From: Proteromonas lacertae
Lineage: Eukaryota
DNA: 64,000 nucleotides
NCBI GenBank assembly: GCA_002245135.1
Contig: NGBS01000015.1
Span: 62,001-126,000 of the forward strand
Direction: 5' to 3'
This document shows, in pieces, positions 1 to 57,945 of the stretch. Made by a program: the position numbers and the translations under genes. The notes under the pieces were generated by a model. That model was given only the letters and a program-made list of their open reading frames with translations. It was not told the DNA's origin and made no database searches. Every line of letters starts with the position of its first letter. The first letter of the stretch is position 1.

Positions 1-2948
1 TTTTAATGTTTGTATCAGTTCTCGTAATAGGTTTAACTGATCTGGGTGGTTTTGTAATGCTTCATTTAGGTCTTCTAATGTTGAAAATTCATTTGGTTGA
101 TTCTGCAATGCTCCTATCAGTTTTTGTATTGCTATTAACTGTTCTGGGTGGTTTTGCAATATTTGCCTTAGGTGTAGTAATATTGTCAATTCATCTGGTT
201 GTTTTTGCAATGTTTCTATCAGTCCTTGTACTGTTGTTAATTGTAGTGAGTAGTATTGTATTTCTTGTATTATACTATCCACTGATTTGAATTGTTGTAA
301 TGTTTGAATTAGGTCTTGTATTGCTGTAATTATTTCTGCCTGGTTCTGTAATGTATATAATTTGTTTAGTTGTGAAGGATTTTGCACTAATTCTAACAAT
401 ATTATCTGCTTTGGCTGGATTTGTAATGCTTGTATAAAACTTTGTGATACTTTCAATTGTTGTGAATAGTTTTGTATTGTTTGTATTAAGTCTTGTATTG
501 CTTTAAATTTAGGTGATTTGTCTTTTCTTGAAATTTCTATTAAATTCTTCAATAAATTCAGATGTAGTTCTGAATTACTCTGTAAGGTTTGTATTAAATT
601 CAGTAATAATTGAAGTTCAGATTGATTTTTCAACATTTCAATTAAAATATGTAAAAACTCTTTTTGTTGTGGTGGTTGGTCTTCTAACTCTTGTATTAAA
701 CTTTGTAATTCTTTCAATTGTGGCAGTTGTTGATTATTTTCCACTTTCTCCATTACCTCTTCTAATGATGATAATAATGGAACTATTTTCTGTATATAAA
801 CCTGTATAGATTGGAGAAGCTGATAATTGTTTTGTATTATCTGTATTAGATTCTGTAATTCATTTAATTGGTTTTGGTCTTCATATACTGCTAACTGTTG
901 TAATTGATTATTCGATGAAGGAATCTGTTTCAATAATACAGTTTGTAATTTCTTTATTGTTTCTTGTATTACATCTATTTGAGTAGTTACTCTATTACAT
1001 GAACTTTGTGATGTGGATGACAAAGAATTGTATATTTTATTTAATTCTTGTATTTGTTTATCAATTTCTTCTATCATATTTTGAAATGTAAGCAATTGTA
1101 ATATTATTCTATAATCTTCACTATGTAATTTAGACTTGATATTTTTTAATAATTCTAATTGTTCTTCTATATTTTTCAATTGTTTTTCAATTAATTCAAA
1201 CAGTGTACTTTCCGTTATAATGTTTTTATTTCCAAAACATATCAATTTATTGTTTAATTTCTTATATTCATCCATATCACCATTTAAAATATTCTTGAAT
1301 TGATTTATTATCACCTCTCCATAGATATTCTTCAAACCACGTTTAATATTATTGTCAACATCTATTCTATTCTCAACTACGTTAATCAAAAACTATAATA
1401 ACAAATTAATATATATATATATATACATATGTTTCACATAATATTCTCTTCCTTTCATCCATCTGCAATATATAACTTTTTTTTAATTCATTTGGAATAT
1501 AACCATTTTGATAAAGTGACGATATTAAAATCTTTATATTTTCTTCCTTATTATCAATAACAAGACTTTTCAAATAATTAATTATATCAGCTTTATGACA
1601 ATCATAAAACATCTATGTAATAATAAAAATAAAAATATACGTTTAACAAAGCAATTACATTCTCTTTAATAACATGCTTTTCATTAGTTGTCATTTGAAC
1701 ACCAGTTATGTTGAATTTATTAATAATACACCCATCGATGCATGGGAAATTGGATATTTCACTAAAATCTAAATACAATCCTTCAACACTTTCTTCTTTT
1801 TCTGTTACATATTTTGTCTCTTTATTGAGATACTCCATTATTTTATCGATTTTATACATATAATATTTATTCTCTGGAAGATATATTGAATAATAATCTC
1901 CTTTGAAATCCACAAATTCATACTGGTAACTAGTAGTTGATAATATAATATGACATAATCTTTCATATATTTTACCGTCATTATCTTTCATGAATGAATT
2001 ATATAATTCTTTATAATTCTCTTTGCCTATGAAGATATTACCAATTATATAATCTCTAATTGCATTAGATTTAAATATTAATCGATCTGGTATGTCATTT
2101 ATCCTTTCTATATCATATATATAACATTTTTCGTTATATGTTGGTGGAATATATGAAGGCAATTTGTCTGTTTCTGTTTTAAACTCTAAATACATACCTA
2201 ATAAACTTCGAGTAGATGCACCTTTTAAAATATATCCATAATTTTTACACTTTGTTAGCAAATCCTCTTCTTCACTATCTTCATCATCATCTTCTTCATC
2301 ATCATCTCCAACATCCATTAGTGGATTTTTCCCCTCATTAACTTTACCAATTATTACTATTAACTCTTCTTCAGTAAATTGTGGTAAATAAAACTGAATT
2401 GGAGCTCTTTTATTACTCATCACTTTGTACTTATCTGCATTTGGAGAACTTATCATAATAACTACCTCATCATCACTATAATCATCTTCTTTAATCTCAC
2501 AATTATCACTAATTATAATGGTTTTGCTCTTCGTTTCTGGTAAAACATCAGCTGCCTTGAACTTATTACCATAAGCTTCTCGCAGATAATATTTTTTTCT
2601 TTTATCTACTAAACCATAAAATATAATATTATAATCCTTAAAATCTTGATCATGATTAAAGCAATATGCAAGGACAATACATAAACTTGTCTTTCCTGTA
2701 GACTGATTTCCATATATCAAAAAGCATTTCTGATACAGTAATTTTTGGAGCGATGAAGTTTCTTGGGGTAATTGATCTAGTAGTGGTGGTGATGATGTAA
2801 TTTTCTTCTTCATCTCACTATAAATACCAACATAACAATCTCTTATAAGTATGTAAGGATTTTTCATAAAGTATTTGCTATCTGTTTCTTTCACCATCAC
2901 CACATCATTTATACAACCATAACTTACACTTCTATTAATAATACTCAT
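1..2948 (-). CDS. Crinkler/RHS-like P-loop NTPase + PD-(D/E)xK nuclease protein with Gln/Leu-rich helical tail; 3' end runs off the window
   Basis: Walker A GNQSTGKTS; GKIYERLCH and NFPCIDG...GVQMT...H nuclease-like motifs. GT-AG introns at about 1613-1640 and 1393-1426 join ORFs 1602..2948 and 1406..1612 to a frame that stays open toward position 1. Confidence 0.7.
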
Positions 2949-3067: not shown

Positions 3068-4093
3068 CTGAGAAAATGTCATCTTTTGGGAAGCTGTAAT
3101 GGAGTTGAAAGGTGCAGAAGGACTTACTGAAGAGTGTTATGTGAATTGTTTAATGCATATTTATAAGAGATTTATATCTGAAAATGGTGATTTAGAAATT
3201 AATATCAATGATTCAATGAAGAAAGAAATAACCAAAGAAATTGAAAAAGGTAATTATACTTTATCAATTTTTGATAAAGCAATGGCTGAAATTGAAGAAT
3301 TAATAAATGTAAATGCGTTTTATACATTCCAATCATCAGCTCATTTTGAAAGTGCTAAAACATTAATGAATTGGTATAACAACTATGCCAAGATGGAACC
3401 ACAAGCTCAAAGTGCAGTATTTATGAAAGTGATGCAAGATGGTATATATATAAGTGCTCAAAACTATTATATCTTTTTTTTTATTATATTATTGTATAAT
3501 TATTTTAAATATTTATTTTTCTTTAATAATGATTACTTATTAATGGATTTGAAAATCCTCCTGTTTTTCATGAAACTGCTACAGCTGGTGGTGGTATTCA
3601 ATCAGCAATTGTTTCATTCGTTTCAAAGGGTAATCCTAATCTAAGTAGACCTCCCAGTATGTTTGCAGGTACAGTGAAACTATCAACTCATGAATCATCT
3701 CATAACCAATCATCATCCAATGATCTTTCAAGACAAATTCGTTCAAGTAGAACAGGAACTTCTCCTCAACCTCCTCCTTCTAGAAAAGCTTCTCATGTTG
3801 TTCAACAATATGCTTCTGCTAATAGGATATCAGGTTTAAAGACGAGTATGAGAATGTATAATAGTAATGCAAATAGTCCAAGAAGATCAAAGGTAATTAC
3901 ACCAACTGAAATGCCTGGTGCAATTCCTGTTACTGTTTCTACTCCTCTTACAAATTCTACTCTACTTACTACTTCTGCTATAGGTGCTTATACTCCAGGT
4001 GGTACTTCTACTCCAGTTACTAATTCCTTCCATATTGCTCCAATTTCAGAGAATGTACTTCCTCCTGTGAAGAAATCACCAAACGATGTGTAA
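3068..4093 (+). pseudogene. 5'-truncated paralog of the 7TM-RGS receptor (RGS C-terminal half + Ser/Thr-rich tail)
   Basis: Starts abruptly at ENVIFWEAV, matching EENIIFWEAV of the 19727-23003 gene. ORFs 3099 and 3659 are joined in frame by an AT-AC intron at 3469-3536. No TM or ectodomain sequence upstream. Confidence 0.7.
3469..3536 (+). other. U12-type AT-AC intron (68 nt)
   Basis: 5' ATATCTTT, branch-like TTCTTTAAT about 10 nt before the terminal AC. Removal gives in-frame NYFINGFENPP. There is no AG acceptor. Confidence 0.8.
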
Positions 4094-4227: not shown

Positions 4228-5838
4228 TTAATATGAAAATGATTTAGGAACAACATTTCTCTTTGTTAGTTTGGAACTTATATCATACTCATTTTTATCT
4301 AATCTACAATGATAGTAAAATATATTAGCATTACCATGCTTCTCCATACTATCACATGAATATTTCTTTGTTTCATTCTCTTCTTCATCTTTGATTGTAT
4401 TTACTTCGATTGTTTTTATTCCTATGAAATGGGATACTAGATTTGGTTCATTTGATGGTTGTTGATTTGATGGTTGTTGATTTGATTGTTGTTGATTTGA
4501 TGGTTGAGCAATATTTCTATTTGATGATACATAAATATAATGAAATTCTGACCAATCAAATAAAATGTTCAAATGTATCATACAATCTTTAATTATATCA
4601 TTGCATTCTCTACTCTCATCTATAACATTTACTACATGAATAAAACAATTATTCAACATATAAATCATTTCTCTGTTTTCAGTTGCTAAATGAACTAAAT
4701 ACATATTACTATCCTTTTTACAATATATATCACCTTCAAATAATTGTTTAAAATATGCAAATTTATTTATATCTATTTCTTTTAATCTAATTCCACAACC
4801 ATGATATAAACAGTTGTAAAACATTAGTTCATCAAATAATAATTTAAACAATTGGGTATTTTTTCCTTTTTCATAAATATCATTAAATATATGTTTAAGT
4901 TTTTCCACATCTTCTTCTCCAGCTTTATGCTTTATACAATCATAAATATAATCAAATACATCATCAGATATAAATTCCATTTCATATTCATTGATTCTGT
5001 CATAGTATTTGATTTTATTCTCTTCATCTTTAAAAGGGATAGAATATTTAATAATATAATGACTTAACGTACTATCAAATGTTGTTCTTGCTTTATCGGA
5101 TATTCTATCATCTTCTGTTTTGTTTGGATATAAATATGTCATTAGAAATTCCATATAACCAAGATCACCAATTATTCTCTTTATACCATTTGTATATAAT
5201 TCTTTCCAATAATCTTTACCATAACATTCTTTATAAATTGAGGCATAATAAATATGCCTTGGCACATTTCCATATCTACTATTATAACCTTTTGCTACTT
5301 CTAATAAACAACCTGGTAAACAATTATCTTCCCATTCTACTATTTCATCATCACTAAATACATCCATAAAATAAAAATACATTTTACGAGATGTATCAAA
5401 AAAATTATCATAATTTTTATGATCTGGAGATGTAATATATAATATTATATTAGAATTTGCTGTTTCAGCATCAACATTATATGAATCAGATATTGCTATA
5501 TCACAATTATCTTTATCCTTACCTTCTACCACTTTTTTCTTATTTAAATGATAAGCATTAAAAGGATTATTATCAATTGCACTTTTAAATATATTCACTT
5601 TGACTGGATCTTCAAGATCACTATTTAATTCATTAATTTTCATTAATAGATATATAATGAAGGATGTCTTACCACATCCTGGATTTCCTCTTAATAAGAA
5701 GTTAAAATCACTGTCAAATAATACTTTGGAAATATCATCTATTCTTGGTAATTTATTTATTCTATCTAGTATTTTATATATATTATTCGTAAATGTTTTC
5801 TTTTTATTCACTTCAGTATATTTAAATTCTAACAACAC
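4228..5838 (-). CDS. Stand-alone copy of the second NTPase module (P-loop + degenerate nuclease-like region); no ATG before the P-loop, possibly a truncated duplicate
   Basis: LLRGNPGCGKTSF; strong similarity to 5925..7505 (YITSPD, NSRYGNVPRHIYYA, GIKRIIGDLGY, FDSTLSHY). In-frame TAA at about 5851 and no upstream Met. Confidence 0.6.
   Translation of the reverse strand: MLLEFKYTEVNKKKTFTNNIYKILDRINKLPRIDDISKVLFDSDFNFLLRGNPGCGKTSFIIYLLMKINELNSDLEDPVKVNIFKSAIDNNPFNAYHLNKKKVVEGKDKDNCDIAISDSYNVDAETANSNIILYITSPDHKNYDNFFDTSRKMYFYFMDVFSDDEIVEWEDNCLPGCLLEVAKGYNSRYGNVPRHIYYASIYKECYGKDYWKELYTNGIKRIIGDLGYMEFLMTYLYPNKTEDDRISDKARTTFDSTLSHYIIKYSIPFKDEENKIKYYDRINEYEMEFISDDVFDYIYDCIKHKAGEEDVEKLKHIFNDIYEKGKNTQLFKLLFDELMFYNCLYHGCGIRLKEIDINKFAYFKQLFEGDIYCKKDSNMYLVHLATENREMIYMLNNCFIHVVNVIDESRECNDIIKDCMIHLNILFDWSEFHYIYVSSNRNIAQPSNQQQSNQQPSNQQPSNEPNLVSHFIGIKTIEVNTIKDEEENETKKYSCDSMEKHGNANIFYYHCRLDKNEYDISSKLTKRNVVPKSFSY
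4445..4506 (-). repeat. 15-nt tandem repeat encoding QQPSN units
   Basis: Repeated tttgatggttgttga; protein QPSNQQQSNQQPSNQQPSNEP. Confidence 0.8.
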
Positions 5839-5924
5839 TGCTTTTTCTCCTTATGTATCGCAGTCAAAGAATTATATAATGAGTGTTTTAGAAAAGAAAT
5901 TATAAAATAATAATAATTAGTGAA

Positions 5925-8900
5925 TTAGAATTTCATTTTTCTTTCTGCTTTAACTTTTGGGGAAAAACCTCTTCCATACATATCTCTATTTAATTGACAT
6001 TTACTTAAATGAAAACTTATATAACCAGATAATGGTATTTCTGTTTCATCTATAAAGAATTTTGTTATTTTGCTATGTTTTGTTGGTGAAAATACTTCTT
6101 CTACTGTCATTTTTCCTTTGTTTTTATTTTGAGGATTCTTTATTCCTATTAAGTGCGATGATGATATATGATTTTCTACTGGTGCGATACTGGCTTCTTT
6201 TGGAGAAAAAGAAATGTAATAGAAGTCAGACCATTTCATTTTTATTTTCAAACATATCATACACTTTTTAATTAAGTCATAACGATCTTCTACATTTTCA
6301 TTTTCATTTTCATTTTCATTCATTATGTGAATAAAACAATTATTAAATAAGTAAATCATTTCTTTGTTCTTTAGAGTAGCTAAATGAAGTAAATATAATT
6401 CACCTTCATTTTCTTTTGAAACCTCATTTTCTTCCTTTTTAGTAGAATATATATCTCCATCAAATAATTCTTTAAATTCTTCAAATTCATCATCTTTTAT
6501 TCTTTCTAATTTAACACCTAAACTTCCTTCTAACATATCTGTATGATACAAACAGTTGTACCATACTAATTCTTGAAACAATAATATAAACAATTGATGA
6601 TCTTGTTCATAAGATACATCTTTTAACAGTTGTTGTATTGTTTTTACGTCATTTTCTTCAGCTTTGTGTCTTATACAATCATAAATATAATCGAATACTT
6701 CATCTGATATGAATTCCAGTTCATATTCATTGATTCTATCATAACATTTGGTTGATTCATCTTCTACTTTGAAGGGAATAGAATATTTCACTAAATAGTG
6801 ACTTAATGTACTATCAAATAATACTGTCCTTTTTTCAGATATCTTTATCTCTTCTTCTTCTTTATTTTTGTTGGGTTCATTAAGATATAAATAAGTAATT
6901 AAAAATTCAATATAACCAAGATCACCAATTATTCTTTTAATACCAACTGTGTATATTTCATCCCAATAATCCTTTTTATAACATACATCATATATTGCTG
7001 CATAATAGATATGTCTTGGAACATTTCCATATCTACTATTATTACATTTTGCTATTTCTTTTAAATCGTCTGGTAAACAATATCTTTCCCATTCCTCAAT
7101 TTCTTTTTCACTAAAAACGTCCATATAATAATATACTTTTTTACCATCAGTATCATAAAAATTATCATAATTCTGATAATCAGGTGAAGTTATATATAAT
7201 GAAATTTCAGCATCAATATCTCCCTTTTCAAGATTATATGAATCAGATATGGCTAAATCACAATATGTATCACCATATTTTTCATATACTCTTTTGTTAT
7301 TCAAGGCATATCTATTACACTTTACATCTCTTCCTTTTTTAAATACCAATGTTTGAATTGGAAATTTTAACACTTCATTCAATTTATTCATTTCTTTTTC
7401 CAATTTATCATTTAAATCGATAAGATTTTGTAACAAATATATTATAAAGGATGTTTTACCACATCCTGGATTACCTCTCAACAGAATATTTATTTTTTCT
7501 CCCAAGTCTATATTTTCTTCATCTTCATTTACAATTTCTATATATGCTGTTTTTACAGTTTCGTTAAACTCCTCAAAATTGGATATGTTATTGAGAAGTT
7601 TGATGTTATTTCCAATACTATATTTTGTGTAATACTCATTCTTTTCTTTAATCCATTCATTTAATTCATTTATAATAATATTGATGGTTAATAACCTATT
7701 TTTATCAATTGTTTCAAATACTTCAGAGAAAAACCTTAATTTAACAAATAAAATATATTTCTTTATTTCATTCCATATATCTTTATATATATCTCGAATA
7801 TATACTTTCTTTTGAGGATATTGGTAAATATCACAATCAATATTTATTATATTATCACCATCTATTGTAACAGGGCGATCAAATACTTTACATAAAGAAT
7901 TAGTTTCTATATTTAATATACAATAATAACAGTAATAATATACTTGTACAGGATTTACAATATTTGTATAAACTACCTTTCATTTCTTTAATAGTATTAA
8001 AAGCAACATCTAATTCTTCTGAATTACATGAATTGAAATTTAATTCTTTTAATTTTTTTACTTTTTCATTATTTGGATCTAACTCTATACTATCATTGAT
8101 TTTTCTCCACTCATCATTAATTATTGTTCTTTTATCATCATCTGACATTTTATTTACAATACAATTTGTTAGATCTCTTTCAATTGTATTTGGATGGTAA
8201 AAGATTTGGCTAAATGTATTTCTATCAATAACAATTTCAGGAATATCTTTCTTCTGTTCATATTTCTTAATAAGCAAACTTGAATATTCTTTAGGTTGGA
8301 ATTCTAATATTTTCTTTTCTCTTATATATCTCTTTTCTATTCCTTTATCACCTACAAAAAATTTGAGATACTCACGTAATTCTATTAAACCCATTCTTAA
8401 TGTACTAAATCGGAGTCTTTTTGATTTTATAGCTATAATAATTTTCATTTGATCTACACTCAATACTATATTTCCTGTATTAATTCTTTTTGTATCATGT
8501 TGAGCTGAATCAACAATCCAATTATAATTGTTTTTCATCTCCATAATCATTTTATTTTTAAATTTTCCATACAAATCAAAATTAACTGAGCCTTCTTTAA
8601 ATGAATCTCTTACTTGATCGCTGTCATATGAAACATACACTATATTGAATATTGGATTAAACATTTCTAATTCATTTATAGCTTCATTTATATTACTGTT
8701 TGTTATTGACTATAATAATAATAATAATAATAAACAATACATTTATTATTTCTATTTTCATTTTTCCTTTCCTATTAACATCCAAGTTATTGTAATACTC
8801 ATCAACTAAATAATCATTTAAATCATGTAATATTTTTCTGTTATATAAATTAATATTATCGTTTTGAATAGTTTCTACCACTGTATTTAAACTAATTTTT

Positions 8901-11900
8901 ATTAATTCATTTGCTTCTTCAATATCATACATATCTACTAACTGTAATTGTTTCTGACAGAACAACAATTGATAATCTAGTGAATATAATGCATATTTTG
9001 TTTGTTTTAATAATTTTTCCTCATATGTATGTAAATCATTAGATAATTTCTTTACTTCATCATTCTTTATTTTTTCTTCTAAGTATTTCTGTAGTACATT
9101 GTATAAACCATATAATTTACTCTCAAATAATAATTCATTACTGTTTGTCGTATCTAACAATTGCAATAATGATCTGAACTGCTTCTCCATTATGTAAAAC
9201 TCATTCATCAACTCATCTAATTGATTTAATTCTGGAATGTTACATAATTTCTGTATTTCATTCTGCAAATTTATATTTGAGTGTGATAGTTGATTCTGTA
9301 ATGTCTGTATTTCATTCTGTATTGTCTTTATTGAATCTTCTGGTAGTTGACTCTTTAATTTCTGTATTTCATATTGTAATATTTTCATTTGAACTTCTGG
9401 TATTTCATTCTGTAATTGCTGTATTATATTTGGTATCATTTCTATTTGATCTGGTGTTATTTTTTTCTGAAACTCGTTTATATGACTTTGTAATATTTCT
9501 ATCTGAGCTTGTGGTATTTCATTCAGTAATCTCATTATTTGATTCTTTAATACTTCTATTTGAGATGGTGATATGTTGGTTTTCGTTAATGTTTCTAATT
9601 GATTTTCTAATGTATGCATTTGATTTGATAACTGAAATAATATCTGTAACATATTCATTTGAACTTCTGGTATTTCATTCTGTAATTCTTCTATAATCAA
9701 ATCTAATGTTGTTACATAAATTAATGGAAATCCTGGCTGAATATTATCCTTTAACTCTTTTATATGACTTTGTAATATTTCTATATGAGCTTGTGGTATA
9801 TCATTCATTAATCTCATTATTTGATTCTTTAATATTTCTATTTGAGATGGTGATATTTCATTCATTAATTTCAGAATTTGAACTTGAGGAATTTCACTCA
9901 TTTGATTTTGTAATATTTCTGATAGGGATTCTGGTAATTGCTTATATAATTTAAGCAACATTGGGATTTGAGGTGGATGAAGAAGAGTTTGTAATGTCAG
10001 TACTTTATTCTTTACTGTATATACTATGTCTGATAGTTTTTCTTGTAAAACTAAAATCAGTGTTGAATATAATTTCAATTGTTTTAATATTAAATCATTC
10101 ATGAAGGGAATATGTAATATTCTATCTTTTAATGATATTAATAAGTTGCTCAATTCTTGTGGTTTTCTATTTAATACGTCTAATCGAGTTTGTAATTCTA
10201 GTAATTGAATTGATAATACATAAGGTTGTATATTCAGTGTTTGAAACTGTTTAACAAATGATTCTCTTGATGAAGGTATTTCATTTGATAAATTAGTAAT
10301 AAATTTATCTGTAGTAATTTTCAATTCTTCTATTTTGGATAGTAATAATACTATTCTGTTCTGTAACCCAATTGAACTAAAATTATTCAAATGTATTGTT
10401 AATTTAGATAATAATGTTTTAATTGTTTCTGCTATATTATTCCATATCAATAATTGGTTTTTGTATTGGTATTTTCCATTATTTAATATTTCTATTTGAA
10501 ATGTCAATGTATTTATTCTTCCTTCCATTAGTGATATTATATCATTATCTTCTATTTTTTTCTCTATTATTGGATATAATTTAACCATATTTTCATTATT
10601 CAACTTGGAATTAAGCTCATTAAAAGTATTTACATCACTATTTATAATATTCTGGAATTGCTTTATCCTCTCTACCTCATAAATGTTTATCAAATCTGAC
10701 TGAATGTATTTTCTACAGGTAATTTCATTTATCAAAAACTATAATAGTAATAACAATATTAAATATACATAGCTTTCACATAATATTCTCTTTCTTTCAT
10801 CCATCAATAGAATATATTTTTCTTTTAATTGACTGGGTATATAACCATTCTGATATAATGAAGATGATATTACTTTTCTATATTCATCATTAGAACTATT
10901 AAATCCTTTCAAATACTCTTCTTTTATTTTATCTTTACGATGATTAAAAAACATCTATTCAAGTATAATATTTATGTTTATACATTCAATAACACTATTA
11001 CTGTATTTACTGTTGGATGATCTTTATCTATAGTCATTTGAATAGGAGTAACATTAAATCTATTAATTATACAGCCATCAATAGCTGGAAAATTTGAGAT
11101 TTCGCTAAAATCAATATATATTTCATCCTTTTTGCTATCACTTATATGATCAAAATCTATTTTGTTATGTATCGTAACACTTATTATCAGGAATGAATAT
11201 CAACTCATTATCCATTCTGCAATTAGCAAAAATAATATGAATCATTCTTTCAAAAACATTACCATTTCTTCCCTTCATAAATACATTATATAATTCTTCA
11301 TAATACTTAGTCTCATTAAAATGGTAATATAAAATTTGTTTGGCTATTTCATCTGACAAAAACTTTAATCGATCAGGAATGGCATTAACTTTATCTACAT
11401 CATAAATGAAACATTTTTGGTTATATTTTTGTGGAATAAATACAGGCAATCCATCATTTTTATCAAATCTTGCATTAGCATATTGAAATGAGGGTAATCT
11501 AGATCGAGTAAAGCCATTGTAGATTTTTCTTTCTTTATCACTGAATTGGGTTATATAAAACTGTATAGGTGCTCTTTTATTACTCATAATCTTATATTTG
11601 CTTGAGTTTGGAGAGCTTATCATTATCACTACTTCATCATTGCTAAATTCGTCTTCTCTGATTTGAAAATTGTCACTGATTATTATTGTTTTTCTTTTCG
11701 TACTGGGTAACTTTTCTGTTTCTTCAAATCTTACTCCATAAGCTTCTCGAAAATAGTAACATGTATGTTCATTTGTTGAAACATAAAACAGGATGATGTT
11801 ATATTCCTTGAAATATTTATCCATGTTGAAACAATATGCTAGAAAACAACTCAAAATGGTCTTACCAAGCTTTTCATTACCATATACCAAGAAACACTTC

Positions 11901-12088
11901 TGAAATTTAGAATTACTACCAATCTGAATTATTCTTTTCATCTCACTATATATTCTCATGAAGCAATCTCTCATTAAAATGAATGTTGTGTCATCAGCGC
12001 AAATCAGTTTCCCATCCTGAATATACTCAGCTTTTACCTTTAAATCGTTAATATTACCATAACTTGATGCAGTGTTATACTTTTGCAT
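5925..12088 (-). CDS. Giant (about 2000 aa) Crinkler/RHS-like protein: NTPase-nuclease-coiled coil/repeats-unknown domain-second NTPase
   Basis: Five ORF-track pieces are joined by GT-AG introns (about 10955-10983, 10739-10768, 8710-8740, 7907-7943) plus one +1 frameshift or 22-nt intron at about 11165. Motifs GNEKLGKT, GNVFERMIH, NFPAIDG...PIQMT...H, then LLRGNPGCGKTSF. Confidence 0.7.
9370..9860 (-). repeat. Internal duplication of about 90 aa in the coiled-coil region
   Basis: ISPSQIE(I/V)LKNQIMRL(M/L)N(D/E)IPQA(H/Q)IEILQSHI...LQNEIPEVQM occurs twice. Confidence 0.8.
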
Positions 12089-12404
12089 TATTCTATAACT
12101 AAAAATGTGAATTATATAATTATCAAGAAAATGTACAGTTATTTATTACAGTTAGGCTTGACAGAATAAATTTATATATATTTTTTAATGTTTGAATAAA
12201 TTTATGGGTTAAAATTTATTTTTATGTTTTTAATAGTTTATCATATAGGATAGTAGAAATAAAGTGTAAAAATAGATATGTAGCTAATTGTTCTAACTCA
12301 GCAGGGTTGTTGATGACTGTAATTGCTTTTATAAAGAGACTCACAAGCTTAAAAATAGCATAAATAGTTTTTATGAAATAATAAAAATTGTAAACACATC
12401 AAAA

Positions 12405-14804: not shown

Positions 14805-17800
14805 TCAATTACAAAAATGTTTTAAACTATCATATTTGTTTTCAAGCGAAGTTAATTCTATTTTCAACTTTTCTAATAAATCTTTCTTTTCATTCTTTTT
14901 CTATTAAACAATATTAATAATCACAATTATAATAATACTTCTTCATTTAAATGATTGATTTTATTGTTTAATAAATCATCAGTTTTATTCATTATTTCAG
15001 TTATCTTTTTCATTTTATTCAATACTTTATCTATCTCATTCTTTAGAAGATCTTTTGTATTGTCATTAATCATTATTGATTCATTTATTGATATATCATC
15101 TGATAACTTTTGACAATATGATAAAAATATATCACAATCATCACTATTTTCATTCTATTTATATAAATATATTAAATATATACAATTGAAAGTTTATTAA
15201 TTTTTGTAACTGATTCTATATATGGTTTATATTCTTCATATAATCGTAATAAATCTTTATTATTACATATTATATTTATTGAATATTCACTCTTCACACT
15301 TTTACATAAGACTTCAAATGATCGAATATGATGAACTAAATCTAATATTTTCTAATTATTTATAACATATATTATATATATATATTGATATATACTTCAA
15401 ATTCATTTTCTATATCTTTATTATGATAGTCAAAATTTTCAATTTTTGGATAAGATTTTTCATTTAATGAATCAATATTATTTCTCAATTCTTTTCGTAT
15501 TAATATCTTATTATATAAATATTCGGTTATAAATGGCATAAATGGTGTTAATATTAATAAATAGTTATACATCACAAATCCCAAGATTTGATTTGTTGTT
15601 GTACAATGGATATTTCTCAAATCAACTTTGGAAAACTCCAAATAACTAATAAACAATAAAATAAATATAAAATAAATAGAATATATACTTATCACAAAAA
15701 TCATGTAAAAAGAATTCAACAATTTCATTTGTTACATTATAAAATGAATAATTATTCATATTATTATTTACATTTTCAATTAAATGACTCAATCTTGATA
15801 AAATCCACATCGAATGTAAAGGTAATGGATAATTATCACATATTTTCATACTACTCAAACTTTCTACACAATAGATATTATTCATTTCATAATATTTCAC
15901 ACAATTCCATAATTTATTACAAAATCTTTTGGAAGATAAAAATCTATTTATATCTATATTTATTGATTTTGATTGTTTTAAATAAGAAAATAAACAGAAT
16001 CTTAAACTATCCAAACCAACTGCTTCAATACCATTTGGATATTGTGATTCGATTAATTTTATTGATTTTTGTATTTCTTTCATTGATAAATTACCATTAT
16101 TCTTTATATTCTTTATCATTTCTTCTTTCTTTATTCCATTCATTATATTCAATGGATCTATCACATTTCCGACACTTTTTGACATCTTTCTACCACTTGA
16201 ATCTCTCACTAATGGATGTAAATATACATTTTTGAATGGCAATTGATTTGATAATTTCTTACATAACATTGCTTCTCGTAAGACCCAAAAGAATAATATA
16301 TCACTTCCAGTTTCCATTAAACTTAACGGATATCTTTTATTATCAAGTTCATTAGGCCAATTACAACTTGATAATGGTAAAATACACGACGAAAACCATG
16401 TATCTAAAACATCATCATCTTTTATTATATCACATTCATTTAATGATTTATTGAATTTATTTTTACACTCTTTTTCTATTTCACTTTTACTATTATTACA
16501 TACAATCCAACCTAACATCTTATTATTATTATTATTATCTAGTACTTTATAAGCTGGGATTCTATGTCCCCATTTAATTTGACGGGAAATACACCAAGGT
16601 TGAGGATTAGATAACCATCTTATACAAGCATTCTTATAGTTCGATGGATATATTCTTAATTCATTATTATTTATTGATTCTAATATTGAACTACTAAGTG
16701 TAGGTGTGTCTATAAACCATTGAGGTAGTAATAAGGGTTCTATTATATCACCACTTCTTGAACATTTGCTTATTGTCATTCCATATGATTCAATATTGCT
16801 TAATCTATATATCATTATTACCTTCATTATATTATATATACAGTTTTTTATCATTTAAATATCTAATTACTTCATTTCTTGCTACAAATCGATCCATACC
16901 TTTAAACTGCAAACATTTTTCATTTAATGTTCCATTTTTATTCATTATATTAATCTAATAAAATAAGTAAAAGATATATATATATATATACCATATTCAA
17001 TTTATTTCTTACTCCACATTCATAATCATTTACATCATGCGCAGGTGTTACTTTTACAGCTCCAGTACCAAACTTTGGATTAACCAATAGATTATCTTGA
17101 ATTACTGGAATGATTTGATTGGTTATTGGATTCTTTACATATTTGCCAATGTATTTGTGATATCTTTCATCTTTACTATTCACTGCAAGTGCTGTATCAC
17201 CAAATAATGTCTCTGGTCTTGTCGTTGCTACAGTAATATAGTCGTTATTATCATTTTGTAACGGATATTTTATAAAATAGAGTAAACCCATTTTGATTGG
17301 CTTATTATGATTTGGTAAAGTAATATAAGAATTACCTTTTATTTCTTCATAATCAATTTCTATATCCGATATTGTTGATTGTAATGCAGGACACCAATTT
17401 ACTATTCTTTTATTTCTATATATTATATTATCATTATATAGCTGAATAAATGCAGTTTTTACAGCATTTGAATGTTTTTCATTCAATGTAAAATATTCAT
17501 TTTTCCAGTCTAATATTGTGCCCATTTTCTCTAATTGTTTGTGAATAATGTCTTTATGCTGATTTGATAAGTGATGTATCTATTAATTACAATTAATTAC
17601 AATAATCATACTTTCTCAAGAAATTCTTCATCTGTAAGACTATTTTTATCAATTCCATTCTTATGTAATACTTTTTCAATTACTGCCTATTAAAATATAG
17701 ATAAAAAAAGAAAACATGCTTGTGTGGCTATACCAGCATGATCAAAACCTGGAATATAAGACACATTATATCCAGACATGTATTTATATCTTGCAATTGA

Positions 17801-19726: not shown

Positions 19727-22700
19727 ATGATTAAATACTCATTACTGTTAGCGCTTTTTATTTTATCTCTGGTTTCAGGGTATTATATTGCATATATACG
19801 ATATTTAGCGAGGACTTTTGTGCAGTTTCAAAGATAAAGAGGAAATTATCGAACGAAATGTTTTCTAAGACTAGTGATTATGATGCTACACAGAGATTAG
19901 TAGAACAGACTGCCAAAAGATTGATGAAAATGAAGTATAGAGATCATACAATGTCATTTATGCAATGTTCAGTATTATCTCCAGAAAAAGGAGATCCTGA
20001 AGTTAAAATTGCATTTGATTCCAACCTTAGAATATCCAATAGGTTATTTAAATGATTCTTTAGCTAGAAAAATGTTAAATAGTGATAAAGTGTTAGAAAT
20101 TTTGAAAGGTGACAAAGTAGATTCAACATATTTTGACGATCCATTCGAAGATAACTTTGAAGAAAAAATAATGAAAGAAATAGGGTTAAATGCTGTGGAA
20201 ATGTATATATATATATATTATTAAACAATAGACTTCCTCAAGTATTAGATTCAATGAATGGTGGATTATCTGTATGGTTACTAATTGGAATAAATCAATT
20301 AATAGCAATGAAAGTATACTTTAAAGAAGCAGATTTTAGTTATTTAAAAGGATGTGGATTTGAACAAGCTAAAATGTGGTATCCTATGCTTGTTCCAGCT
20401 ATTCCATTTTTACCTAGAGCAGACGGTACAAAACCAAACGCTTCATGGACTCGTCCTACTGCAGATCTAAACATTGGTTTATTAATGACTGAATATGTTG
20501 TACCACTCTATAAAGAAAGTGCTGCTCATAATAATGAAAAGAGATATTATGGTCAATTAATTGCTGATATTGCTATAGAAATGGTATTTGGAACTGTTAC
20601 TAGAGTAACACCAACTGCTAATGGATTTTATTTCTTAATGTCAATGGAGAATGGAGCTATAGTTAGTACTAATGATTATGTTATGGTTGAATTGTTTCAC
20701 AATGAAACTGCTAATGTCTCATATTTTTACAGTAAGGATATTTATTTAACTACATCTGACTCTGGTTGGAAGAATTTATTTCAAATAGTTAAAGTTGGAA
20801 AAGAAGATCATTATGAAGTTCCAAAATGGAAAGATAATAAAATTGTTTACTATATAACCTGGGAAGTTGTTGAGAAGTATAAATATGCATTAGTTGCTGC
20901 AATACCAACTAATGAACTATATGGTGCATCTTGGACAGTTGAACCATCTGTTATTACATTCAGATATACAACAGGAGAGAAAAAATCAACAGCAAAATTG
21001 ACTGTAAAGAATACTGGTTTATATGATGGTAAATTCACTATCACCACTAATGATAAAGTGTCTTTAAGTCAAACAGCTGGTCAACAATATGATTTAAATA
21101 AGGACAAATCAATTGAATTCACTTTCACTTATGATTTGACTAAAGGGTACGATGATAATTTAGTAATTACATTCTCACCAGCTGGTGACAATATTGAATG
21201 TTATACTGCAATTCTTACACCAGTAAAAACAGAGAATATTGATTGTGTTCCTAATGATTATTCAGTGGAATTAGGAGAATGTATAGATTACTATAGAGAT
21301 GTTATTTATTCAAAGAAAAACTCTAGTTATTGTAGAGATGGAATGCCATTACCTGATAAAGAATCAATTCCTTGCGAGTGGATGGATGGAGCTGCATTTA
21401 TCGCAGTGACTATAATAGTAAGTGCTGTAGTCTTATTTGTAATGATTTATACTGCTGTAAAACAAATTAAGAATTTCTCTGAATTGAGAGCTTTATTAGC
21501 ACCATTATTCTTTTATACTTTTGCTGTTGGAATGATTTTATTGGTTGTTTCTGTATTGGTATTGGCTTTAGGAAAGTTGAATAAAGCTGATTGTGCAATG
21601 TATGAAGTGTTCAGAGGTATTGGTTATTCATTTATTGCAACAGCCGATGTGGGTTACTTTAATGCAAATTAATACTGTATAAGATATATTTTTAAATCTA
21701 TTTTTATTAGAAATTTGTGAATAATGATATTATCTTCATTAGAGATATCTTCTATCTCCTTGAGTTTCTTGTTCCTGTTGTTGTTCTTGAAGCAGTTATA
21801 CTTTATTTAACATCTCCATTCTTTGATGATTGGAATAAAGAGTTAAATGGTAAAACAATTGTTATGACAACCTGTATGAATTCTGATGATTTAAAGAGTG
21901 GTTTTATGGATATTCTCATTGTATATATATGTAAATATATATATATTTATTTTATAGTTGGTAATTGCAGTTATTAATATAGGATATGCCATAAAGATTC
22001 TCACTTCCAAAGCTGAATTAGGTAAATCAACACTTCAAGTAACAAGAGCTTGTGGTATTGGTAGTTTTCTTCTATTAATCAATCCATTAACTTCATTTGT
22101 GACAAAGAATGGATTTCCAAACTTCGCTATAATTAGTTATATTTATTTAGCAATCATCTTGTTATTGACATTTGTTATGATTGCTTTAACTCCATTCAGA
22201 CAATGGTTCTTCTGTAAAAGTCCTGAAGTTACTCCTGATACTAAAACCATGTTTTCTCAAGTACTTAAAAATCCAATCACTAGATTATATCTACAGAAAC
22301 ATATGAAAGATTTATTACAAGAAGAAAATATCATATTTTGGGAAGCTGTGAATGAATTAAGAAACGCACCAGATCTTCCAGAGAATATAATGCATGAATG
22401 TATAATGCATATTTATAAGAGATTTATATCTGAAAGTGGAGATTTAGAAATCAATATTAACGATGCAATGAAGAAGGAAATCACTAAACAAGTTAATTCT
22501 AATATATTAACATTAGATATCTATGATAAAGCAATGGCTGAAATGGAAGACATGATTAATGTAAATGCATTTTATACATTCCAATCATCAGCTCATTTTG
22601 AAGGTGCTAAAACATTAATGAATTGGTATAACAACTATGCCAAGATGGAACCTCAAGCTCAAAGTGCAGTATTTATAAAGGTGATGCAAGATGGTATATA

Positions 22701-23003
22701 TATAAGTGGTAGAGAATATTATATCTTTTTTATTTATTGTATATTTATCAATTGAATTGTATTTCTTAATTAACTGTTTTACTCGTTGATGGATTTGATA
22801 ATCCTCCAAGATGGGATAATGCTGGCTTTGGTGGTGTATTTAAGAATAAAATATCAATACCTACTGGTGGTAATGGAAATAGTAGATCAACATTAGCTGC
22901 TGTTCTATCAGGATCAAGTGCAACAGGATTAGGAGGAAATGGAAGTCAAAGAGAAACTAATACAAGTTATACTACTCCAGTAACACCAGTAGATGAAGAT
23001 TAA
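19727..23003 (+). CDS. Signal peptide + dCache-like sensor + Ig-like + Cys-rich + 7TM + RGS receptor
   Basis: Spliced start MIKYSLLLALFILSLVSG. Cache-like WY...WTRPTAD...VPLY...YGQLIADI, GFYFLMSMENG and YALVAAIP. About 7 hydrophobic segments. RGS EENIIFWEAV...IYKRFISE...EININ. GT-AG introns, one AT-AC intron and two +1 frameshifts (about 20030, 21647). Confidence 0.75.
22721..22782 (+). other. U12-type AT-AC intron (62 nt)
   Basis: 5' ATATCTTT, branch-like TTTCTTAAT, 3' TTAC. Removal gives EYFVDGFDNPP, open to TAA at 23001. Same position and phase as 3469-3536. Confidence 0.82.
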
Positions 23004-27600: not shown

Positions 27601-29764
27601 ATGAGTGGTTGGTATAGCTTTTCAATATTATGCAATAGGTTCGCTGAAGATAAACCATCTGTAGGTGATGAAGTAACACAGGTTTTACCATTTCAAGTTG
27701 AAGAAGAGTATAATTCCATTTTTTATAATGTATAGGGAAAAGAAAACTGAAATTGATGTTCCAGAACAATATGATGAACCAAATGAAGGAGATCTAGCAT
27801 TGGATGATTACAATCCTGACAGTATTGTTTATGGTATAATATAATAGCTGATGATTTATGGGAAGGTCCATTAGATGGAGATTATGATTTTGATGAACAA
27901 GCAATTGACAGAAAACTCCACAATAGAAAAAATCCAATTCAAATTCCAGAAGAAGCTCAGCATCCTGAATTGCAAGATAGAAAAGAAAGTGAGTCAAAAG
28001 AAGAAACATTAGTACCAGCTGTAATAACTCGAACTCCCAATAGACCTGAAAGAAAAGCACCTTCAGGTCCAAAACCACCACCTGGTGCTCCAAGAGGACC
28101 TCCCAGTGCTCCAAGAGGTCCTGCTCGACCACAAGTTGGCAGAGGCCGTCCAATGGGAAGGGCACGACCAATTCCAGGTCAATCTAGACCACAACCACCA
28201 CCTCAACCACAATTACAGCCACAATTACAGGAATATAAAATGTCAGAACAACCTGCACCTCAACCATCACCTTCTCCACCTTCATATATCCATAATGCAG
28301 CACCTCAACCACATTTAGAACCAGTAATTCAACAACCAATCTACCAACAACCTATTATACAACAACCACAACCACAACCACCAATAGAAGAACCAATAAA
28401 ACCCAAATTACAAATCCAAAGTCAGGCAATAATAGAATCAACATATGAAGAGAAGAAAGATGATGTGATATTACATCCCCAACCACCTCCTACACAGCCA
28501 CCATCACAATTACAACAGCAGCAAATGTTATATCAAGTTCCAATACAGCAACAACAGGTAGTAATACAAAATCCAGCTCCAAAGATTATACATCATGTAC
28601 AAGAAGTGATATTTGGTGAAATATCCATACCTCCAGTGGAGAAAAAACCTGTACAACCTGTACAACCTCAACAACCAGTGCAACAACAACAACAACCACA
28701 GCAAATAGAACAACAGAAACAACCACCAAAACAGAAACATCAAACAATAATCAACAAATCATTTCAACAACCTCCTCCACCACCACAACCATCTTCATTC
28801 TTTGATTCTAAGGATATGAATGAAAGTGGAATGGTTGATGGTGAACCACTAATCTCACCATTTGAACCAACACCACAATTTCATGAAGGTAAAGAAGAAA
28901 CAAAAGAAACACATATTTCACCACCTCCTCCAATGATGAAACAACAAATAAAATTTACAGTATATATTTATATATTATTATGTATTTATATAGAATCATA
29001 ATACCCCTAAAGGTCCTGAATTATTAATGACATTCCCAGGTACAATTCAATGTACTTTAACAAGAATGAAAAAGAATATATTAATGTCAGTAACAGAATA
29101 TCAATTAGCAATGTCACTAGAGAATGGTGATGAACAATTATTGATGGTCGCATTGAAACAAGCTTGTCGTACACCAAACTATCATATATTTGATATGACA
29201 AATAGTAATACAACAGATCATACAAAATTGAGTAAAAAAGATGGTAATTATTTAGGTAAATTAAGATGTAATTTTACTGGTTCAGAATCAGTGATTTATG
29301 GTAATTCTTTACTAGATATTGAAGATAAATTCAAACCAGAGTTTGGAGCTGGTAGATTTATAAAACCTCCTACTAGAAAGACTGAAAATAGATCAGCTCA
29401 ACCAAGAAAGATAGATATTCTATTACCTGCTGTATCTTCTGATAGGAGAGTCATTCCACATAAGCCTACAAGAGAAGCTGATACGTTATTGAGTAGAGTG
29501 ACTGATTTACAACATATTCCAGATGGGTATTATTTGTTGCATAATAAGGCACCTGTATTTACACAAGGATCATATAGATTGAATTTTAATGGTCGTGTGA
29601 ATGTGTCTTCTGTTAAGAATTTTCAACTTGTTATGCAAGGTAATGTGGATACAGTGCTTTTACAGTTTGGTAAAGTGGATGATCAACATTTTCATTTAGA
29701 TTTTTCTTCGCCTTTTTCTCCATTTCAAGCATTTTGTATTGCATTGTGTCAATTTATATATTAA
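27601..29764 (+). CDS. Tubby-like protein with long Pro/Gln-rich N-terminus
   Basis: YLGKLRCNFTG, LHNKAP, YRLNFNGRVNVSSVKNFQL, LQFGKV, FHLDF..PFSPFQAFCIAL; four short introns give a continuous frame. Confidence 0.88.
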
Positions 29765-30373: not shown

Positions 30374-30495
30374 AAATCCGTCAATTTATTATTATTGTTT
30401 ATATTCTATCTTGCTGTTGTTTTAAAAATCACTCATTAAAACAAAAATATATAAAATAGCCAAAGATATTATTTTTATTATTATTATTTCCAGTT

Positions 30496-32088
30496 TTACA
30501 ATTTAGCAGCACCTTCACCAGCAATTCTTCCAAATACTACACATTCCATCAAACTAGCGCCAGCCAATCTATTAGCACCATGCAATCCACCAGTAACTTC
30601 ACCAGCACCATATAAACCAACAATTGGATTACCTTCAGTGTTTAATACCTCACAATTCGTATTAATCTTTACACCACCCATTGTATAATGTAAAGAAGGA
30701 GTAACAATACCATAATCTATTAATAATATAATAATATATATATACAATATGGGCCATTTATATCAAATGTATTTGGAAATACTGTCTTGTCAAATTCATC
30801 ATGTTTTTTTTCAACCGAATCAATATATTTCTTAATTGTATTAGTCAAAGCATCCTCAGGTATTTTAGTCTTTTCACATAATTCTTTGATACTTTCCACT
30901 TTATTAATTAGTGATTTTGACATATAGAATCCTATATCACCTCTTCCTAATAATTCCACCATAGTATCACTCAATATTACATAGGCAGATGGATAATGAG
31001 TTTTTATACCATCTTTTACTTCAATTGCTTCACAATTCTGTTGAATTCCTTTTGTCACTGCATCTCTAGTATTTAATTCGTTAATAAACCTTAAACCTTT
31101 TGTATTGACTAAAATACCACCTACACCTCTTAAAGCCTCAGGAGCTAAGAATTTGGTTGTATTATTAACATCATTAGGATCAACAAATCCAGTAGGATGT
31201 AATTGTACTTGATCCATTAAGGTTAATTGTGCACCAATCTTTCTAGCTAATTTTACACCATCACCTGTTGCGAATGGACCATTTGTAGTTGGTAAATCTG
31301 CAATTTGTGGAACAAACTCTTTTAATAAACTGTCTTCTGTATGATCATTAGCATACCCACCACTTGCAAGTATAACAGCATTAGCATTAAGTGTAATGAG
31401 TTTATTTTCTTCATTTTCATATTCTACACCTATTACATGCTTTGATTCATCTTGTAATAATTGTTTTACACAGCAACCACATAATACCTTACAGTTTGGT
31501 CGACTTTCTACTTCTTTACGTAATGTACTGACTACAGTCCATCCAACTGGCGGTGCTTTTCCTTGTGCATCTTTTACAAAACGATGAGTTCTTGGAAACT
31601 ATATTTTACATATATATATGACAATTATACTGAATGACCTCCACATTGTAATACTGTGCCTAATATTAATCCATGTTTGTCTAAGAAATCAATAGCTGAA
31701 CTGGAGTGAGAAGTTGCTAAATCAACAATATCTGGTAAACTTTTGCCTTGACCTGATCTACATAATTATTATGATTATGTATATTGTAAATAGTTATACT
31801 TTAATAAATCTTTATTATAAGCTTCATTAGTATCTGCAATACCCTTTTCTGCTTGATAATGAGTTTCACTACAACTGATTCCTGAGGATGCTTTGGTTGA
31901 ATTACCTCCTCCACTATATTAAAAATATTCTTACTTTTTTATACCGTTTATCTTTCTCTATTACTGTTACATTAGCTCCATTATCACTAGCTTCAATAGC
32001 AGCACATAAAGCAGCTAATCCACTTCCAACGACGATTACATTATGAGTTCCTGTTTTAGATTAGCAATCAAGTATTTATACCAGACAT
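30496..32088 (-). CDS. Soluble FAD-dependent fumarate reductase (flavocytochrome c/Osm1-like flavoprotein)
   Basis: [58 protein letters not shown]; five short introns. Confidence 0.9.
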
Positions 32089-42788: not shown

Positions 42789-45689
<2,901 letters not shown>

Positions 45690-46935: not shown

Positions 46936-49581
46936 ATGTCAAGCAAGATTTCTCCTGAAAATACAGAACCAGGTATATCTACTTGAATAAATACTATAGT
47001 GGTAAATCCAAGACTAAAAGAACTTAAAATAATCTCAAAATCTCAATCTACAAATGAACAATCGATGTTAATACCAGAAGAATATGAAGAATCACCAGTG
47101 GGTGATGCTGATGACATATTGGAGGAAAATAATTTAATTAATCCTATTGTTCGTAGAGTAGCATCTGTAGACACAATAGCATTCTCATTCTAAGAAGAAA
47201 GTTACAATCGATCCTAACGCTGAAGCAGTTTCAAGTGGCGGATCAACAGGTAGAAAGAAGCCAATGTCAACGTATCTTTATTAAATATAATAAAATAGTC
47301 GATGGAAGAAAGTAAAAGGAGCTGCAGAAGTAGTTGGATGTTTAAACGAATATAAGTATATATTATTCTAAATGATAATTAATAGAAAGGAGATATTACT
47401 ATTTGGATCATCTAAAGTAGATTTACCTCGAGAACCTCCACCACCACCACCTCGACCCAAATATATTATTGCACATGATAATAAAATCAAGATATGGTGG
47501 GATAGATTCTTAGTTGTTGTATATATTTATTTAGCTTCAGTTATGCCAGTATCAATATGTTTTTTCCGTGAAGAACCAACAGTTTATTATGTACTAAATA
47601 TCGTTATAAGTGTAATTTTCGGTATTGATGTAATTCTAACATTTTTCAAGTATTTTAATATATATATATATTATATAGAAGTTATGTAGATGTAAATAAT
47701 CAACCTGTGTATGATATGAAAAAAATTGCTATTAATTATTTAACTGGTTGGTTTATAGTTGATATAATATCAATTATCCCTTGGAGTTCTTTTTTTAGTA
47801 GCAGTGATAATAGACGATATACTCAATTATTTCGGTTATCAAAGATACTTAGAATAATTAGACTTATTAGAGTGTTTAAAATAAACCATATATTTAAATC
47901 AAAGACTAGTCTTGGAATATCTGATGTATATTATTATTATTATTATATTTTATATAGTTAATATTAATGAATCGTAATGCTGGTTTATTTAGATTATTAA
48001 AGTTTTATATGTATACAATAATTTGTATTCATATATCATCCTGTATTTGGTTTTTATTAGCACAAGCTTCATCTTTTACACCAGACGTATATATATATAT
48101 ATTATTATCTTAATATAGACATGGATCTATCGAAGATATTGTTCATCATTAATTACTGAATGTAAAGAACCAACCGATAAGAGTGAAATGATATTACCCG
48201 GTTTCTATGTATGTACAAAAGAAGAATTATTAGCTGCTGAAAATGCATGCAGTGAATATGCGTTTAGTCATAAAACTTCATTGTATTTTGATGGATTATA
48301 TTTTGCGCTTTCAACTATATTAACAGTAGGATATGGTGATATAACTGCATTTACAGATATTGAAAGAATTTTAGTAATATTTTTGATGTTTATAGGTGGT
48401 ACTTTATATTCAATTCAAATCTCTAGTCTTACTTCATTTATCTCCACTTTAGATGACAAAGAAAACATCTATCAAAAGAATTTAGATCGAATTAATACAT
48501 TTTGTAATGAAACAAATTTATCTTCTGAAGTTCGAATGAAAATGAAAAGAGATTATACTTATGCATTCAAATCTGGAACAAGTAGTGTATCAATCGCTGA
48601 AAGAGATGTATTATTACAATTAATCTCGCCAAGTATATTGTTATATAATAATTAATAGAATTACGAATGGAAGTATTATCTTATATGTGTAAACATGTAA
48701 TTGATCGAATTCCCTTCTTTCGAAATAAAGATGTAATGTTTGTAGCTAAAGCAGTCGATTTATTAAAGCCAGTAGAATATAAAAAGAATGAGTATGTAAT
48801 GAGAGAAAGTCAATACACTTGTGGAATGTTTTTTGTAGTGAAAGGAAGCGTAGTTTTATTAGCTGATGATAATTCCAAAGAATTACGAATAATAAATGAA
48901 GGAGGATTCTTTGGTGAATCAGCTGCATTTTGCCCATATAATCGATATTCAGCTAGAGCCAAAGGTAATTGTGAATTATTTGTATTAAGTCGAAGATCTA
49001 TGAAGGAAGTATTATCTGAATTCCCTCAAATGGCTCAAGAACTAAGAGATATTGCTGAGAAACGAGAGCAAAAGTTGTTTCAAGGATTGATATCTAATCA
49101 TAATAGTAATACCAATTTATCAACTGCTGGTGTTACTACTCCAGTGAGACAATCTAATAATTCTTTGAATCCAAATAATTTAAAAATGTCTGCTCCATCT
49201 CCTTCTCAAAGATTTAGAAATTTAACTCCATTAAAGAAATTATTAATAAATTCAAAATCAAAGGATAATATAGAAAATGACAGTGATAAAAATAATGAAG
49301 AAAGAGAAGGAAAATCTGAATCATATCCATCTCCACCACCACCACATCCACCTCCAAACGCTTCTTATAATTCCCCTTCTACTGAACTTAGAAAACATGT
49401 AAAATCTTTACCTAGATTACAAGCTTTACCAAGTGATTTGACTGATTCTCCGAAATTGATGAATCCAATAGATGTAAATGTAATCCAAGCTGCTATAGAC
49501 AGTTTACAAGAATTATTAAGAAGCCAATATTTTGTTGAAAGAGGTTTCACTCCTCCTCATAGTCCGTTAAATCGTAAGTAG
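46936..49581 (+). CDS. Voltage-gated K+ channel with cyclic-nucleotide-binding domain (KCNH/CNG-like)
   Basis: YLTGWFIVDIISIIP, S4 RLSKILRIIRLIR, pore TVGYGD, CNBD GGFFGE...SARAKGNCELFVL. Confidence 0.9.

Positions 49582-57911: not shown

Positions 57912-57945
<34 letters not shown>

Follow-up and report, generated by a model that had tools for sequence, protein, structure and literature searches.

A predicted receptor of Proteromonas lacertae combining a double Cache sensor, a probable class C-type seven-helix bundle and an RGS domain

Glycine bound at the Cache domain of the metabotropic glycine receptor mGlyR (GPR158) is reported to inhibit the GTPase-activating protein (GAP) activity of recruited RGS7 (PMC11437087, PMC8611064, PMC12834959). 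Proteins that join a seven-transmembrane (7TM) bundle to an RGS domain are described as widespread outside animals (PMC3971589, PMC3718340, PMC9283941); in Arabidopsis RGS1 and Naegleria 7TM RGS1-4 the seven-helix bundle is directly followed by the RGS, and G-alpha control by gating of GAP activity has been proposed. The Naegleria 7TM-RGS domains are reported to be GAPs, their ectodomains are of the EGF, lectin and GPS types, and the word "Cache" occurs nowhere in the available portion of PMC9283941, which also leaves open the receptor status of the protist 7TM-RGS proteins and the way in which ligand binding would act on their GAP activity. A 2025 survey of class C receptors centred on opisthokonts found, in its available part, a Cache domain in no non-metazoan member (PMC12716839). 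Here we describe a gene of Proteromonas lacertae (+ strand, start codon ATG at 19727, TAA stop at 23001-23003) whose predicted product is apparently an undescribed variant of the 7TM-RGS kind. All positions refer to the window, i.e., the whole analysed stretch of 64,000 nucleotides (contig NGBS01000015.1, positions 62,001 to 126,000, assembly GCA_002245135.1). A literature search, which did not extend to subscription papers or to the supplements of PMC3971589 and PMC8915833, turned up no account of a Cache-7TM-RGS chain. Should the one-piece switch proposed below hold true, no earlier Cache-bearing 7TM receptor would have been described outside animals, and no earlier protist 7TM-RGS protein would have a defined ligand.

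We consider, with somewhat better than even confidence, that the family to which this gene belongs is a predicted single-chain, ligand-regulated receptor-GAP for G-alpha, in agreement with the ligand-gated GAP receptor of the initial annotation; in the window copy the frame is likely broken once or twice by a single base. What is observed is the identity of the domains (dCache, ASH/MSP Ig, ELAPOR1_C-like and RGS), their order and their presence in one unbroken chain in one relative. When 1.84 billion representatives were searched in full with HMMER (E<=1e-3), 22 homologous clusters emerged, the best at 38-42% identity, and all of these align to the gene model: 12 include the Cache region, nine reach the transmembrane (TM) helices, five contain both and a single one, P0011, extends to the RGS, most of the others looking like open reading frame (ORF) calls that end in intron-like read-through. 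In P0011, Cache, Ig, Cys module, 7TM bundle and RGS lie in one ORF of 1049 aa (dCache_1 Pfam E 1.4e-6, RGS E 3.1e-8), the length shared by all eight members of its cluster, and the window model is collinear with it over 800 columns (model residues 240 to 1001, E 2e-41). Thus, the single-chain question is settled for the family, and the initial annotation is borne out both in the domains it assigned and in placing them on a single chain. All ten relatives whose source was looked up come from Logan or ENA assemblies. Word-indexed homolog searches among longer proteins gave nothing with two exon pieces and, with a profile, only P0011 itself, and two metagenome scans yielded 155 and 220 candidate stretches, with no locus confirmed among them. 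P0011 ends in a Glu/Lys-rich repeat tail (residues of note, 640-780 and 930-1049).

The ectodomain carries the predicted sensor. It had been read from the letters as a two-lobed, Cache-like region, and the motifs on which that reading relied all lie where they were placed (MWY at 20374, WTRPTAD at 20446, YYGQLIADI at 20545, GFYFLMSMENG at 20623 and YALVAAIPTNEL at 20884). An AlphaFold model of residues 151-621 (22 sequences, mean predicted local distance difference test score, pLDDT, 80) was compared with known structures, a check on which the double Cache assignment could have failed, and came out as dCache: the top Foldseek match was 3lib (E 8e-7), and the alignment to 3li8 reached a VIA Z of 9.9 (root-mean-square deviation, rmsd, 3.6; 172 aligned). 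A model of P0011 repeated both the dCache match (Z 10.4, rmsd 3.7, 180 aligned) and the Ig match, and a family profile retrieved the Cache structure 9hvj at E 5e-9. At the curated Pfam cut-off for dCache_1 (45 bits) no window exon ORF matched, the best relative scoring 28.5 bits, and a single-sequence PDB search with the ectodomain returned no matches; its atlas neighbours are Cache clusters, all under 0.9 and taken as leads only. The Ig-like segment proved to be of the ASH/MSP/PapD type (VIA Z 11.6, rmsd 2.4, 97 aligned), with Cep192_D3 above cut-off in P0001, and the Cys-rich module resembles ELAPOR1_C (profile match to ELAPOR1 at E 7e-6; P0002 and P0010 both exceed the ELAPOR1_C cut-off). 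The Ig start, the Cys module and the RGS box were all confirmed at the positions first assigned to them (Table 1).

The RGS domain was recovered above the curated Pfam cut-off (E 5.1e-15) and matched 23 PDB sequences at E<=0.01, and it shares a single ORF of the window with TM5-7. It retains the EEN motif and a distal Asn 43 residues on; in a Selaginella RGS the Glu and Asn reported as required for GAP activity are 44 apart (PMC11061236). Based on these parts, we postulate that a small molecule would bind in the membrane-distal Cache pocket, that the stalk would relay the change to a bundle probably of class C type, and that this bundle would reposition the tethered RGS, whose GAP activity would change and most likely drop. 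G-alpha-GTP would then accumulate, a strategy of inhibiting the inhibitor that is modelled on plant RGS1 and on mGlyR-RGS7. It is likely that different members of the family sense different ligands.

Several observations weigh against this reading. The class C fold remained below every threshold tried, and the gene as written is one open frame only if conserved TM3 residues are dropped. The motif of the DSYxRF type reads NAFYTF in the window RGS, and two of the residues thereby replaced are G-alpha contacts in RGS4. In P0011, the one relative of full length, Lys and Arg take the place of the two conserved RGS Asn residues; some family members, P0011 among them, may have lost GAP activity. No G-alpha was present among the 40 window ORFs scanned. 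Finally, the motif of the dCache_1AA amino-acid sensors (YxxxxRxW...Y...D; PMC8915833) is not kept: the Trp and the final Asp are present and the Tyr and Arg are replaced (mapped by eye, in a low-confidence stretch of the model), the Arg being absent in all six of the closest sequences. Binding of a standard amino acid in the manner of dCache_1AA is therefore improbable, and the ligand is probably of another kind or held differently.

Table 1. Features of the receptor gene and of its truncated duplicate (window positions)
Feature	Position	Strand	Basis
Exon 1: start codon and hydrophobic, signal-peptide-like N-terminus	19727..19779	+	Sequence; hydropathy 2.0
Intron 1, GT-AG, 29 nt, 21% GC	19780..19808	+	P0001, P0010 and P0043 start with intron-like read-through right before the equivalent first Cys
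Exon 2: N-terminal part of ectodomain (likely dCache helices), includes frame junction 1	19809..20202	+	Sequence comparison with P0001
Frame junction 1: probable +1 break near 20029, or atypical GC-rich intron	19972..20030	+	5/5 candidate introns 33-39% GC
Intron 2, GT-AG, 29 nt	20203..20231	+	P0001: intron-like in-frame read-through at equivalent site
Double Cache (dCache) lobes	20232..20925	+	AlphaFold model and fold searches; family profile; P0011 dCache_1
ASH/MSP/PapD-like Ig domain	20926..21243	+	VIA Z 10-11.6 to CEP192, HYDIN, VAP and MSP domains
Four-Cys ELAPOR1_C-like stalk module	21244..21375	+	Profile match to ELAPOR1
TM1-TM3, Cys at TM3 top (21592)	21391..21676	+	Model, hydropathy; 7tm_3 E 0.003, below cut-off
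Frame break 2, inside TM3: seven bases, two codons in relatives	21646..21652	+	Gap-free flanks with P0002, P0005, P0011, P0014, P0043
Intron 3, GT-AG, 34 nt	21677..21710	+	P0002 and P0014 enter intron-like sequence past equivalent QINT
Exon 4: TM4, extracellular loop 2 with Cys (21873), TM5 start	21711..21920	+	Collinear with P0011, loop there modelled as beta-hairpin
Intron 4, GT-AG, 37 nt	21921..21957	+	Frame joining
TM5-TM7 and short linker	21958..22248	+	Sequence; P0011 comparison
RGS domain; EEN and I-N contact residues kept, DSYxRF-type motif altered	22249..22611	+	Pfam; alignments to solved RGS domains
Candidate AT-AC (U12-type) intron, 62 nt, begins ATATCTTT, ends AC	22721..22782	+	Frame-restoring
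Last exon: low-complexity Gly/Ser/Thr tail and TAA stop	22783..23003	+	Sequence
5'-truncated duplicate: RGS from EN motif on, AT-AC intron, longer tail	3071..4093	+	DNA identity; Pfam RGS profile positions 26-115

The spliced model comprises 1028 residues without a stop, an X being placed at both frame breaks. Four GT-AG introns (29, 29, 34 and 37 nt; 8-21% GC) account for four junctions, and three of these coincide with the points where relatives enter intron-like sequence. No GT-AG intron was found that joins the RGS exon to the frame of the tail; a candidate AT-AC intron is placed there because of its position and frame in both RGS copies (in the truncated copy an equivalent arrangement lies in frame at 3469-3536), the pattern by itself being not above chance with four occurrences in the window vs 2.8 in shuffles. 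Blastocystis, a relative, is documented to have AT-AC introns (PMC5608401, PMC10639083). As an observation in its own right, candidate AT-AC introns at one site in both RGS copies (22721-22782 and 3469-3536) suggest a minor spliceosome in the lineage. The view that splicing yields one protein thus stands for most junctions (four GT-AG and one AT-AC), but a +1 frame break in TM3 stays, probably together with a second one near 20029.

At the TM3 break, each of the seven candidate introns (33-43% GC) would delete conserved TM3 residues. An AT-rich GT-AG option of 62 nt (21649-21710) would keep the frame and remove VTLMQINT, ca. ten residues conserved in relatives, and we rate it as unlikely because the relatives conserve what it would remove. 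The second break, near 20029, is probable and less certain: identity to P0001 is 37% over 51 aa in one frame and YPIGY follows in the next, the junction being situated between a conserved Cys and YPIGY, and all five candidate introns that keep both the Cys and YPIGY have 33-39% GC vs 8-21% in the other introns of the gene. For this locus only we give serious weight, a little short of even, to its being a decayed pseudogene of a genuine receptor family in which the breaks are real. Two +1 breaks within one gene, the one firm and the other probable, point that way, as does the truncated sister copy at 3071, a sign that genes of this family arise and decay; moreover, the inspected stretches of the neighbouring genes for valyl-tRNA synthetase (ValRS), a MAPK and a fumarate-reductase-like protein are, by eye, without frame breaks and both tubulin ORFs are intact, and therefore the assembly is not riddled with insertions or deletions. 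However, the exons of the model contain no in-frame stop, the Cys pattern and the splice sites are preserved, and the 62-nt intron would hold the frame at the TM3 break, if at the cost of the conserved residues. Single extra bases are, besides, typical of long-read consensus errors, and a local assembly error may account for the breaks instead of decay.

Unlikely, in our estimate, is the explanation that the RGS serves mainly for docking or as a scaffold, its GAP activity being slight, and that the partner of the Cache-Ig ectodomain is a protein or a surface rather than a small molecule. It would fit the loss of both Asn residues in P0011 and the altered C-terminal contact motif of the window RGS, and it has precedents, as RGS domains with a scaffold role are known (PMC3971589) and the Cache domain of GPR179 is reported to bind the protein pikachurin with no response to glycine (PMC11437087). 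Nevertheless, the window RGS retains both EEN and the distal Asn, and the two Cache lobes are present, with ligand-bound chemoreceptor domains as their best matches.

The bundle that would connect sensor and RGS was initially counted as about seven TM helices of a class-C-like kind. Seven long helices, with a hairpin following the fourth, do appear in the P0011 model at low pLDDT (about 40-65), but a hydropathy scan at a threshold of 1.6 gave only five strong segments besides the signal peptide, and five strong peaks were seen in the window protein and in P0011 alike. The class C label fared less well: the Pfam family 7tm_3 matched TM1-3 alone at E 0.003, below the cut-off, and a slightly longer TM piece at 16.7 bits vs a cut-off of 33.5; only one of the 14 aligned family members matched 7tm_3 at E<=1; and a family profile reached GABA-B2 in the PDB at E 4.8-6. 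Atlas neighbours of the bundle are RGS and 7tm_3 clusters (0.79-0.84, all under 0.9 and leads only). TM3 has a Cys at its top and extracellular loop 2 (ECL2) another (C604 and C686 in the model); P0011 has Cys at both places as well, its loop being modelled as a beta-hairpin, and the pair would form a TM3-ECL2 disulfide. No GPCR (G-protein-coupled receptor) bundle was listed in three fold searches that used the P0011 model; Ig and Cache matches filled the lists and the model is poor in the bundle, for which reason we do not count this against the assignment. Class C membership of the bundle is thus weakly supported, and we regard it as probable.

A class C GPCR that activates G proteins, the fused RGS merely shortening the signal, would be quite improbable. 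The available part of an InterPro table for Proteromonas does include many class C 7TM proteins (PMC12129017), and activation of the guanine nucleotide exchange factor type is considered still possible in heterokonts (PMC3971589). Of the motifs named for class C receptors, an ionic-lock Lys in TM3 and FxPKxx in TM7 (PMC8611064), the window protein nevertheless has, by eye, no such Lys in the cytoplasmic half of TM3 before the loop and only the Pro of FxPKxx in a TM7 that reads LTPF, and the characterised 7TM-RGS proteins are reported to be GAPs. That ectodomain plus TM1-3 and TM4-7 plus RGS are separate genes, joined only by the earlier reading, is very improbable: an in-frame stop at 21670-21672 does terminate the long ORF, yet P0011 holds both parts in one ORF, collinear over the junction, and P0005 reads from TM3 into TM4 gap-free.

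Among characterised proteins, the closest in logic are GPR158/mGlyR and GPR179 with RGS7-Gbeta5, which are alike in having a Cache sensor, a Cys-rich stalk and a 7TM bundle that acts via RGS instead of through G-protein activation. The TM3-ECL2 Cys pair is likewise common to both, and HK-Z3, the top Foldseek match here, is also among the nearest structures reported for the ectodomain of GPR158 (PMC8611064). In GPR158 and GPR179, however, RGS7-Gbeta5 is recruited as a separate component, whereas here the RGS is fused into the chain; the sensor of the window receptor is two-lobed, unlike theirs; and their EGF-like linker with ten Cys is replaced by the ASH/MSP Ig and the four-Cys ELAPOR1_C-like module. 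GPR158 and GPR179 were also absent from the PDB matches of four family profiles at E<=10, so convergence is likelier than orthology, and the receptor is not a member of the GPR158/GPR179 family. By analogy, it likely works as mGlyR-RGS7 does. The initial annotation held that the full architecture is not known from characterised proteins, which is correct as regards the fusion; the logic itself, however, has been characterised in two-component form in GPR158/mGlyR with RGS7.

The sensor itself resembles that of bacterial dCache_1 proteins (PctA, Mlp24/Mlp37, mmHK1S-Z2/Z3) in its double Cache fold; in contrast to these, in which the sensor sits directly on a TM helix, the window receptor has an Ig-Cys stalk and an RGS output and does not keep the amino-acid motif. 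Alpha2delta and CACHD1 have the extracellular dCache fold in common with it (CACHD1 being a weak match, E 0.18, Foldseek rank 24), and to our knowledge neither has a 7TM bundle or an RGS. No VWA match was found in the window ectodomain, unlike the eukaryotic dCache_1 proteins of PMC8915833, all of which, among those examined there, are reported to have a VWA insertion.

Taken further, the comparison leads us to a tentative proposal, which we hold at a little less than even: an expanded dCache-Ig-7TM-RGS family in flagellated gut stramenopiles could be an independently built, one-piece mGlyR-RGS7 switch, in which a ligand in a pocket of bacterial-chemoreceptor type would turn off the tethered GAP and release G-alpha. 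If the fused Cache-7TM-RGS chain is true, the design of the brain glycine receptor in which the ligand inhibits the GAP would have arisen more than once, and a simpler single-chain model of it would be at hand. A dCache domain, being soluble, lends itself to ligand screening, and ligand control of a protist 7TM-RGS protein thereby becomes directly testable. A G-alpha partner is plausible, because the Proteromonas InterPro table lists seven G-alpha proteins, along with 75 RGS, 116 class C 7TM and 31 TTL proteins, while all eight Blastocystis strains have zero TTL, G-alpha and class C 7TM proteins; periplasmic-binding-protein-I counts are 182 in Proteromonas vs 0-1 in Blastocystis, and RGS counts 75 vs 2-3 (available part of PMC12129017). 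The terms "GPCR" and "G protein" do not occur in the main text of that paper. Within its available part, the Proteromonas table has no Cache row and zero periplasmic-sensor-like domains, and thus, if it applies to this lineage, standard annotation misses the sensor.

A second RGS copy at 3071 had been taken, with a start at 3068, for a paralog fragment indicating a family. The family exists, as the 22 homologous clusters show, but the copy is a truncated RGS-plus-tail piece and not a paralogous receptor. It shares 82% DNA identity with the main copy over 499 nt, starts abruptly at 3071 inside the RGS, 114 bases from an opposite-strand ORF, and has no TM helix or ectodomain upstream; judged by its sequence, it is a remnant. 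At the protein level the two copies are 76% identical (dN/dS 0.37 over 132 codons), pointing to past purifying selection on the RGS. The truncated copy is flanked by related-looking ORFs with P-loop-like motifs (e.g., GNPGCGKTS) at 1605-2957, 4231-5850, 5928-7979 and 11168-12142 (-), none of which had a Pfam match at E<=0.001, and this stretch looks like a gene duplication region.

The window is AT-rich eukaryotic DNA with short AT-rich introns and 27.2% GC, Proteromonas being reported at 27.0% (PMC12129017), and encodes alpha- and beta-tubulin, ValRS, a kinase, a Tubby protein, a cyclic-nucleotide-gated channel and a TTL-family enzyme. By GC and gene content the stretch fits a Proteromonas-like lineage of gut flagellates; an origin in Blastocystis was rejected because of the TTL gene in the window and the zero TTL, G-alpha and class C 7TM counts of that genus. 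Long Gln/Asn/Glu-rich repetitive ORFs at 1-1392 (-) and 8696-10738 (-) are without Pfam matches. The beta-tubulin (42792-44153, -) and alpha-tubulin (44325-45686, +) genes stand head to head, each as one unbroken ORF, and the Tubby protein (28994-29761, +), the cyclic-nucleotide-binding ion channel (48119-49578, +) and the TTL-family enzyme (57858-59252, -) are found elsewhere in the window. A FAD_binding_2 flavoprotein resembling soluble fumarate reductase is interrupted by several short introns (30490-32050, -), and the ValRS gene contains a candidate in-frame intron of 33 nt with a GC donor (17687-17719, -).

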